Assembly (NCBI RefSeq): GCF_003018255.1
Contig: NZ_CP027440.1
DNA length: 64,000 nucleotides
Strand: one strand, 5' to 3'
From: Escherichia coli
GTDB taxonomy: Bacteria; Pseudomonadota; Gammaproteobacteria; Enterobacterales; Enterobacteriaceae
Each line of letters opens with the position of its first letter. The stretch's first letter is position 1. The position numbers are program-made. Below are positions 3,001 to 6,000 of this stretch, one piece after another.

Positions 3001-6000
3001 TTTCATTGATGATGCGGGACCAGCCATCAACGCCCACCACCGGAACGATGCCGTTCTGCTTATCAGGGAAGGCGTAAATTTCTTTCGTCCACGGATTAAG
3101 GCCGTACTGGTTGGCGACGATCAACAATGCGATGAACTGCGCATCGCTGGCATCACCTTTAAATGCCGTCTGGCGAAGAGTGGTGATCAGTTCCTGTGGG
3201 TCGACAGAATCCATGCCGACACGTTCAGCCAGCTTCCCTGCCAGCGTTGCGAGTGCTGTACTCATCCGTTTTATACCTCTGAATCAATATCAACCTGATG
3301 GTGAGCAATGGTTTCAACCATGTACCGGATGTGTTCTGCCATGCGCTCCTGAAACTCAACATCGTCATCAAACGCACGGGTAATGGCTTTTTTGCTGGCC
3401 CCGTGGCGTTGCAAATGATCGATACATAGCGATTCAAACAGGTGCTGGGGCAGGCCTTTTTCCATGTTGTCTGCCAGTTCTGCCTCTTTCTCTTCACAGG
3501 CGATCTGCTGGTAGTGACGCGCCCAGCTCTGAGCCTCAAGACGATCCTGAATGTAATAAGCGTTCATGGCTGAACTCCTGAAAATGGCTGTGAAAATATC
3601 GCCCGCGAAATGCCAGGCTGATTAGGAAAACAGGAAAGGGGATTAGTGATTCAGGCCGTTACCGCGTCCGTCGAGAAAAACTTCCACGAGCAAATCACGG
3701 GTATAAGTGCGCTCGATGCCGCGATGCAGATATAGCCGTCCGCGTAAATTAGCTGATGCAGTCCAGGTACCATCTTTGTGTTTGACCAGCATTCCTGGCA
3801 TGACCGCACCTCGATTAACGGTCTGCGTTCCATAATGTTGATGAACCATAAAAACTCCTGCCCGTAAGCTGGGCTGCTGAACATATAGAGACTTCTGCGC
3901 GTATTCAGGCGGTGGATGGCCGCCGGTTGTCATAACTAAGCCGCCTCGTTGAAGCGACTGAGGTATGAGGTGTTGAGTTGATTTCAGCTGGTCACACCGA
4001 CGTTCACGCGTCCGTTTCACCCCTCGCACTCCCCGGAGCCTGCCGAAATTCAAGCTGCGGATCTAAGCGGTCATCGCAACGGTGAATCAGGCGGTTGCCG
4101 TATCGTTGTGTTGTTGCGACATGGTAATAATAGCTATTGCTATTGGTGGTATCAATACTTATTGCTATTGATTGATGTGTTTTGATATTAACTGTTTGAT
4201 AGCAAAAAGAATTAATTTTGTGACTTGCATCGCATAGCGATAACTGAAGGGAGGTTGTGGTGGTTTTTCGAACGGTTTGTGTGATGAGGGGAGGGGACAA
4301 AAGAAAACCCGGCACGGTGGCCGGGCTAGATCTTAAAGTATTTATCTTTTAGAGATGTAGATGCAAAATTTTTTGCCTTTGAAAATTTTTTGTCATCAGA
4401 AGAGCTTATGAACTCATCTTTTTTGTAGGGAACCGCTAATGCTGCATCACGTCTGCGAGGCAGCTTACTTACTTCCTCGCACTTTTTCATGATCAGTTAT
4501 CCTTTAATAACCTATACAGTTTTGTAGGGGTACATCCTGAGGATATTGTTAAGTTCGTAGCACGCCTTTTCCGCCCACCATCGTATAAACGAAAACCAGT
4601 AGTAGACGAATTTTCTGCGTCAAAAACTATAGACAGTATAACGTCCCCAGACTTTTTTTGCCATTCATATGTGCCGTTAGTTGGTTTTGTCATCTGTAGA
4701 CGCCAGTCAAGAACGCCATCACTTATAGCTGAGAGATCGTTTAGTACGTCTAGTACGGATTGATATCTTTCATTTGGATCTACATGAATGCATTTGTTTA
4801 CTATTGTTATCAATTTTTTATGTATGTGGGAAGGATACTCTTTTAATGGATAGGAGCCATTAATTATCGACTCTCTGAGTTGTTCAATCGTTCTAAATGC
4901 AGATCTTTCTCTTTCAAAATTATCATATCCAACACACATTCTATATATGGTTAATCCTGCCTGATATATGTCATATGTGAAATTATAATCATTTGTTGAT
5001 AAAGAAAAATATTCCGGTGGCACATGAAAATGATATCCAAACTCAGGCGCAGCTCTCGATTCCTCATTGACTAACTGAGACAATCCAAAGTCAGATAGCA
5101 TGGCCTCATTTCTGTTTGATATCATGATGTTATTAGGTTTTATATCAAAATGCATAAGACCTTTTGAGTGTATATGATAAAGCCCACTTAAAAATTGAAT
5201 AGAATACCGTATTATCTCCCTGCTCGTAAGATTAATCTTTTTTATTAATTGGTTTAGCGAACCATTATGATAAAATGGCATGGCTATATAGATATTGCTC
5301 TCACATTGAGCAGCATACTGAACTTGCACAATATTTGGATGTGCATGTTTATAGAGAAGCCTTGCTTCATTAAAGTAGTCGTCGTGGTTAGTGTTTTCTT
5401 TTTTTTCTATTTCTTTAATCACCAAGTCATGAGCTAGGTGTCTGTCATGAGCCAGATATACTTTTGAAAAACAACCCTGTTCTTCTAGATCACGAATCCA
5501 TTCGAATGCTACATCAGCTCTTTTGTATGGAGTCAGCATCCCCTTACCTCCGCAGATAGTGCAGCCAAAACAGCTTCATTTGTTTCAGTTGTAAAACCAG
5601 AATTATCGATTCCATTTATATTACGGTGTGACTTCAATATTTCTTTATACTCGATCTCTGTTAGGTTCAATGATGACTTCATACCAGATTTTCTAATGGT
5701 GTAATATCTTCTTACATCACTGCTTGAAAATGCTTCTTGAATAACAGCTTCTATATAAAGGCGGTCAATGCTAAGATTATCAGAGTTTGATTCAGTAACG
5801 CGTATAGCAGCTAATTCAACATTATATAAATTAAGAATGTCGAGGATGTTATTTCGCACATACTTTAATTTTTCTGGTGTGTCTAAGGTCGAAGGTATTT
5901 TAATAACATCAACACATTTGAGTGCAGACTCATCAGTGCAATATACAACAAAAGATGTAACTTTGGGCGCCGCCCTAACACCTAGTATTCTCATTTTTTA

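Follow-up and report, generated by a model that had tools for sequence, protein, structure and literature searches.

A stretch of 64,000 nucleotides of Escherichia coli DNA (contig NZ_CP027440.1 of RefSeq assembly GCF_003018255.1; hereafter the window) carries, directly downstream of a cI-like repressor gene, a cassette of three minus-strand genes which encode a RuvC-fold protein of 153 amino acids (aa) (hereafter the partner), a Hanks-type protein kinase of 348 aa (Stk) and a basic protein of 54 aa. Judged by its sequence, this cassette is the stk operon of phage 933W itself, an already known abortive-infection locus, and as it is near-identical to that operon it does not constitute a new system. 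In 933W, a eukaryote-like tyrosine kinase is reported to be cotranscribed with cI, and its activity to abort superinfection by phage HK97 (PMC3564112). It is highly probable that the three genes are a 933W stk cargo module, expressed in the lysogen, and that recombination brought this module into another lambdoid prophage, a Bievrevirus-like one, where it occupies the slot downstream of cI.

Positions 4300-6057 of the window align with the stk region of 933W at 96.9% DNA identity, and the 933W record annotates the matched stretch as the terminator tM, L0081, stk and L0083, in the same order as in the window. At the protein level, 337 of the 348 residues of Stk are identical to 933W Stk (97%), 151 of 153 residues of the partner to L0083 (99%) and 50 of 54 residues of the third gene product to L0081 (93%). 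When window positions 4200-6100 were compared with phage genomes by megablast, 53 records matched; in 39 of these at least 80% of the query is covered, with an identity of about 97%, and 933W, phi24B and many other Shiga toxin (Stx) phages are among them. The phi24B ortholog of L0083, which is 99% identical to the window partner, is named in its record "res, putative Holliday junction resolvase". The operons of 933W (L0083-stk-L0081) and phi24B (res-stk-vb_24B_12c) share with the cassette all three genes and their order, the terminator and the location between cI and OL/PL. 933W has an extra gene, L0084 (DUF3024), between cI and L0083, which is absent from the window cassette, and the surrounding phage differs in backbone and in cI, being Bievrevirus-like in the window and a Traversvirus in 933W.

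The partner gene (5533..5994, minus strand; ortholog of 933W L0083 and phi24B res) and the kinase gene (4493..5539, minus strand), both taken from a six-frame list of open reading frames (ORFs), overlap by 7 nt, GGATGCTGA, while the ATG of the third gene (4326..4490, minus strand; ORF list, ortholog of 933W L0081) lies 3 nt past the kinase stop. An initial annotation of this DNA had described the first two genes and their overlap correctly, but overlooked the third, so that its two-gene unit becomes one of three genes. It had cited 933W Stk as a precedent, and the 96.9% DNA identity now makes of this precedent the same operon. It had also found no named system to which the cassette could be assigned, a place now taken by the 933W stk operon, and it had listed near-identity to a characterised system among the outcomes that would speak against its proposal; that near-identity is what the comparison with 933W brought to light.

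Products of the three genes and their linkage

The motifs which had led the initial annotation to a Hanks-type kinase are all present in Stk, namely K42 in VIKEI, H130, D132, K134, P135 and N137 in HFDIKPNN, D150, F151 and G152 in the DFG motif, and P175 and E176 in PPEY. In a 53-member family alignment all of them are invariant, with the exception of G152, which is conserved in at least 90% of the members. The kinase fold, for which a check by structure prediction had been proposed, is borne out by Pfam Pkinase, which covers residues 21-260 (E = 1.6e-46), and by an AlphaFold2 model (predicted local distance difference test score, pLDDT, 86.8; predicted template-modelling score, pTM, 0.88), for which Foldseek retrieved the AMPK, PDK1, CaMKII and Aurora kinases at E ~1e-16; the PHROG family phrog_2361 matches the protein at E = 9e-139. 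The further assignment to the Ser/Thr kinases holds in part: HFDIKPNN is a catalytic loop of the kind found in Ser/Thr kinases, yet published work calls Stk a tyrosine kinase; with such a loop in a protein to which tyrosine phosphorylation is ascribed, dual specificity is possible. Beyond the kinase domain (about residues 21-270) Stk has an orphan beta-rich C-terminal domain (about residues 278-348; 4493-4705, minus strand), modelled as four strands and one helix at a pLDDT of about 95 and bearing the invariant residues Trp279 and Trp293. This domain has no match in Pfam and no significant sequence match in the PDB, where hits to Cas12X (E ~0.005) were taken as chance, and it may be a trigger-sensing or partner-binding domain.

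A fold search placed the whole length of the partner in the RNase H-like RuvC fold. In RNase H-like nucleases the aspartate of strand 1 is indispensable, and its loss abolishes two-metal catalysis. A profile-sequence alignment places partner R7 on D7 of RuvC, the first catalytic Asp, and R65 on E66, the Glu of strand 4; the Pfam RuvC alignment agrees with it on the N-terminal register. The set of RuvC catalytic carboxylates (D7, E66, D138 and D141) was looked for in the partner and not found, the positions of D7 and E66 being basic. An exhaustive profile search collected 432 cluster representatives of the partner family, almost all of 150-165 aa and belonging to a clade of their own. Conservation was counted over 123 diverse sequences, consisting of 122 cluster representatives and the query: G5, R47, R78, E82 and E87 are conserved in 100% of them, R7 in 99%, E68 in 98% and E140 in 97%, position 65 is always Arg or Lys, and the strand-1 Asp is kept by no member. 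Because this indispensable Asp is replaced, we read the partner family as probable pseudo-resolvases, in which the former active-site face would have become a conserved Arg/Glu surface. The initial annotation had likened the N-terminus of the partner to the first strand of a RuvC/YqgF-type fold devoid of the conserved Asp, whose position is now seen to hold an Arg.

Sequence identity of the partner to RuvC and to RuvC-fold pseudo-enzymes, such as the C-terminal domain of mitochondrial TEFM, amounts to 12-18%, and where RuvC has D7 and E66 the partner family has Arg, and Arg or Lys, throughout. The RuvC sequence profile of Pfam, PF02075, did not match the partner significantly (i-E = 0.11), and the partner profile gave no RuvC match among PDB sequences at E <= 10; the matches to ALIX obtained there were regarded as chance, and the fold was placed by the fold search instead. 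A PADLOC match to tm_HEPN (E = 0.015) and an NCBIfam match to the EMYY lipoprotein were dismissed as noise.

The association of the partner with the kinase is strict. When the kinase alignment was run against viral contigs, 80 loci were returned, of which 77 strongly match the kinase family model, and at all of the strong loci having upstream DNA (75/75) the partner is located directly upstream of the kinase on the same strand. The spacing ranges from -1 to 23 nt, with four exceptions, whose late-starting kinase match leaves an apparent gap of 146-313 nt; in the same scan the partner was missing beside three weak kinase matches, two of them on megabase-sized contigs. Likewise, in every bacterial context examined, nine diverse ones in all, a partner homolog was found directly upstream of a Stk-type kinase of ~340-350 aa, the partner stop and the kinase start overlapping or abutting, and these partners keep the signature residues at 30-68% identity to the window protein. 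The contexts themselves are diverse: the genes stand behind unrelated repressors in Klebsiella and Proteus prophages, adjoin an integrase in Terasakiella, the Wadjet genes JetC/JetD on a metagenomic contig, and a type I restriction-modification (R-M) system and an integrase in Vibrio, accompany Abi_2 and an integrase in a Pseudomonas island, and lie among tail genes in an Acinetobacter prophage, while in Crocinitomicaceae (Bacteroidota) partner and kinase were found together. That the partner is an unrelated neighbour is ruled out by the 75/75 linkage and the conserved stop-start coupling.

The third gene, matched by phrog_4063 at E = 3.4e-38, is nearly as regular a companion. An ATG-initiated ORF of 50-64 aa begins -3 to +38 nt from the kinase stop at 43 of 47 distinct loci, and in Crocinitomicaceae the kinase is followed by an open frame whose last residues are YFKVSKKK. 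The small protein of most Enterobacterales and Proteus copies is basic at its N-terminus, contains a Pro-Tyr motif and carries an aromatic-Lys tail at the C-terminus. The ratios of non-synonymous to synonymous substitution (dN/dS) against the window allele come to 0.04-0.11 in the partner, 0.08-0.21 in the kinase and 0.20-0.36 in the small gene; since all are below 0.4, the three genes are coding and under purifying selection, and the partner is the most constrained of them. A chance ORF behind the kinase is ruled out by this value together with its presence at 43/47 loci.

The cargo slot downstream of cI and its predicted expression

The best matches of window positions 1-12000 are Bievrevirus-like lambdoids (4A7, Lambda_4C10, 1W/3W and Perceval), which align over 1-4325 and 6076-11878 and leave a gap between; relative to phage 4A7, the difference coincides exactly with the block 4326-6075. 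Homology to 933W in turn ends at 6057, so that the cI of the window is different from that of 933W. In the same slot, 4A7 (locus 4325-5741) has an ASCH protein and a 353-aa protein which correspond to PADLOC PDC-M11B/A (E = 7e-52 and 3e-133), and 933W has L0084 (locus 5763-6104), which matches PADLOC PDC-S43. The block between the cI stop and the terminator is thus an exchangeable cargo slot, and in all the phages examined it carries defence genes, either confirmed or candidate. It acts like a hotspot for defence genes, with one recombination junction where cI stops and the other at the terminator.

Within the species the cassette is present in 224 of 5426 complete E. coli genomes (~4%), and 29 records match the window at 99% identity or above. 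Some copies of the cassette are broken by IS3-family elements, and in others the match to the kinase hidden Markov model (HMM) begins late, at profile position 46-101. These broken and late-starting copies suggest that inactivation happens now and then, as would be expected of an abortive-infection gene that carries a cost.

The repressor gene upstream of the cassette (ORF 6075..6803, minus strand) encodes a helix-turn-helix (HTH) and an S24 peptidase domain and matches the transcriptional repressor family phrog_4 (E = 1.4e-69) and the CI-like repressor family phrog_6201 (E = 2.4e-46); its true start is likely ATG 6767, as opposed to the TTG at 6803 listed for the ORF. A PRM-like promoter (6775..6803, minus strand; TTGACC-17-TAAATT, 9/12 consensus match) has a -10 element which ends 7 nt ahead of ATG 6767, a spacing that suggests a leaderless cI mRNA, as in lambda. 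By its likeness to PRM of lambda and 933W, this promoter would probably serve the same function.

At the other end, the cI operon is closed by an intrinsic terminator (4297..4327, minus strand), recovered by a terminator scan and by RNA folding and corresponding to tM in the 933W record AF125520; its GC-rich 8-bp stem (4327..4306) is followed by the U-tract UUUUCUUUU, with a free energy (dG) of -14.2 kcal/mol, so that the minus-strand terminator claimed earlier is real. Repeat comparison and a consensus scan delimited OL-type operators and a PL-like promoter at 4127..4210 on the minus strand. Two copies of the operator core ATTGCTATT stand there, at 4136 and 4161, beside a related 9-mer in reverse complement at 4199, and the comparison of 9-mers located the core again between cI and cro, at 6811 and 6836, in OR-type operator repeats which span 6811..6845 and to which no strand is assigned. 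The PL-like promoter itself (4155..4127) reads TTGATA-17-TATTAT, a 10/12 consensus match. The placing of the cassette by the initial annotation, downstream of a cI-like repressor and before OL-like operators, is therefore supported by the S24 repressor, by the core common to OL and OR and by the PL-like promoter.

An element which had escaped the initial annotation is a stem-loop at 6018..6037 (minus strand), in the interval from the cI stop to the partner start. It is a GC-rich stem of 7 bp without a U-tract (dG -14.8 kcal/mol, z = -3.55), it falls inside the block homologous to 933W, and it could be an element of RNA processing, stability or attenuation.

Farther from the cassette, the N-terminal part of a long ORF that contains kil (3643-4053, minus strand) includes an Arg-rich stretch, GVKRTRERRCDQ; the records of the matching phages annotate no N-type antiterminator in the interval from the PL-like promoter to kil. 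In the early-right region, after a ren-like gene, the plus strand carries a gene for an SMR/QacE-like small multidrug transporter (9702-10088) and one for a large serine recombinase of 508 aa (10343-11869), a layout also found in the annotation of phage 4A7.

Proposed mechanism and alternative explanations

The function of the operon has been described in Stx phages. Stk is reported to be expressed in lysogeny and to mediate abortive infection (PMC8008677), under the control of pRM (PMC3430580), and to be activated on HK97 infection, with little or no activity in uninfected cells (PMC3681748). In phi24B lysogens, two proteins encoded downstream of cI were seen on two-dimensional polyacrylamide gels (2D-PAGE) and were restricted to the lysogen (PMC3342100); a transcriptome paper identified the pair as vb_24B_13c and res, and gave the expression of cI, stk and res as unchanged on induction (PMC4651098). 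Since phi24B res was detected on these gels and named in that paper, the partner is an expressed protein in lysogens. The suggestion of the initial annotation that the cassette is exclusion or abortive-infection cargo expressed in the lysogen was right, by homology to 933W and by the published exclusion of HK97.

Applied to the window, these observations outline the following course of events. In the lysogen the operon would be read through from the PRM-like promoter (6803..6775) together with cI, and transcription would end at the terminator before OL/PL. Stk would be almost silent in the uninfected lysogen, as its 933W counterpart is, until infection by a heterologous phage (HK97 in the case of 933W) switched it on; cell proteins would then be phosphorylated, and the infection would be aborted at the cost of the cell. 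The translationally coupled RuvC-fold pseudo-nuclease may be an obligate, non-catalytic subunit acting as a sensor, or as a regulator or brake on the kinase, and the small basic protein encoded downstream may be a third component in the role of regulator, pseudo-substrate or substrate; these roles of the accessory genes we infer. There is roughly an even chance that the Stk kinase forms, across Pseudomonadota (Gamma- and Alphaproteobacteria) and Bacteroidota, a three-component system in which a dead RuvC-fold protein acts as gatekeeper or sensor, its possible cue being branched DNA of the phage or a resolvase-targeting phage protein, and in which the basic peptide is essential. A limited literature search, which is no proof of novelty, found no paper naming or testing an architecture of three genes with a kinase and a RuvC-like protein.

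Several points weigh against this account. The window Stk differs from that of 933W at 11 residues, and its function here is assigned by homology. Co-transcription from PRM is likewise deduced, with the strong stem-loop at 6018-6037 standing between cI and the partner, and a consensus scan returned weak promoter-like matches within the cassette, at chance frequency. If stk alone were sufficient, the accessory genes would not be strictly required for the exclusion of HK97, and in principle the invariant residues E68, E82, E87 and E140 of the partner could form a non-canonical active site.

This last point leads to an alternative in which the partner is an active nuclease effector, activated by the kinase as sensor, or the reverse, so that branched or phage DNA is cut and phosphorylation is not the sole output. 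Such an effector would agree with the complete RuvC fold, with the four conserved acidic residues just named and with the annotation of the partner as a resolvase in GenBank and PHROG. It is nevertheless unlikely, as 99% of the family have an Arg in place of the first carboxylate, Arg or Lys always stands opposite E66, Pfam gives no significant match to RuvC, and loss of the strand-1 Asp, as is generally known of the RNase H-like enzymes, abolishes two-metal catalysis. A more tenable though still doubtful proposal is a toxin-antitoxin-like arrangement, with the kinase as toxin and either the partner or the small basic protein as antitoxin, which an infecting phage would degrade, titrate or modify, thereby freeing the kinase. 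The stop of a small upstream gene overlapping the start of the enzyme gene recalls the architecture of type II systems, and the strict linkage of the three genes, the position of the partner as the most conserved of them and the near-inactivity of Stk reported for uninfected lysogens (PMC3681748) all fit; however, neither known antitoxins nor HipA-type kinase toxins came up as homologs in PADLOC, NCBIfam and Pfam, and the partner has no DNA-binding HTH of the kind typical of autoregulating antitoxins. The proposal is in any case a sub-variant of the best explanation, an abortive-infection kinase held with a non-catalytic partner, and not a rival that excludes it.

It is very improbable that the cassette has its main role in virulence signalling or in the physiology of the lysogen, as might be supposed of a eukaryote-like kinase in a phage of enterohaemorrhagic E. 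coli, with exclusion as a side effect. The genes were first found in Stx phages, and the impact on the lysogen is described as unidentified in an earlier genome paper (PMC3430580). However, the trio is also found in environmental bacteria and non-pathogens, where its neighbours include genes for Abi_2, type I R-M, Wadjet and integrases, and in sister phages the slot carries PADLOC candidate defence systems. Deletion of stk is reported to be without effect on the attaching and effacing lesion phenotype (PMC3681748), while the exclusion of HK97 is published (PMC3681748, PMC3564112, PMC8008677).

Relation to other defence systems

The abortive-infection operon of 933W has a counterpart in lambda, whose RexA/RexB fill this slot too, lying on the PRM transcript past cI and before OL, and follow the same logic of an abortive infection expressed by the lysogen against heterologous phages (PMC3564112). 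RexA/RexB are reported as a two-component system free of a kinase, and they have no relation to the cassette in sequence or fold; no Rex model in PADLOC, PHROG or NCBIfam matched, and the likeness is one of position. PADLOC PD-T4-6 and Stk2 of Staphylococcus are, like the cassette kinase, Hanks-type kinases in anti-phage defence. The PD-T4-6 HMM matches Stk at E = 1.5e-36 (best 124.6 bits), over residues of about 20-275 only, leaving out the C-terminal domain. Both systems are defined as one gene, whereas the cassette kinase is flanked by the RuvC-fold partner at the strong loci examined. The PADLOC model mad6 also matches the kinase (E = 8e-49), within the kinase domain only and over positions 61-335 of 659; the cassette was not found to belong to MADS, with an NCBIfam MAD6 score of 113.7 bits against a cut-off of 460 and with cI and PL-side phage genes, in place of the methyltransferase and other genes of MADS, as its neighbours. 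NCBIfam scores of the cassette are far under every curated cut-off, and in PADLOC, where the kinase domain alone was matched, there is no model for the partner or the small gene. The cassette belongs to the 933W Stk system, which is already published; of RexAB it is a positional analogue only.

The correct annotation for the window is hence that of a known prophage abortive-infection kinase, in a cI-adjacent slot which holds other candidate defence systems. Defence catalogues list such kinases as single genes, and no database models the three-gene architecture. The strict linkage of the kinase to the pseudo-RuvC partner and the small peptide suggests that Stk-type systems have a trigger-sensing or restraint mechanism yet to be mapped. 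What gives the locus its remaining value is these two universal companions of the kinase, which make of it a concrete three-gene unit to test.

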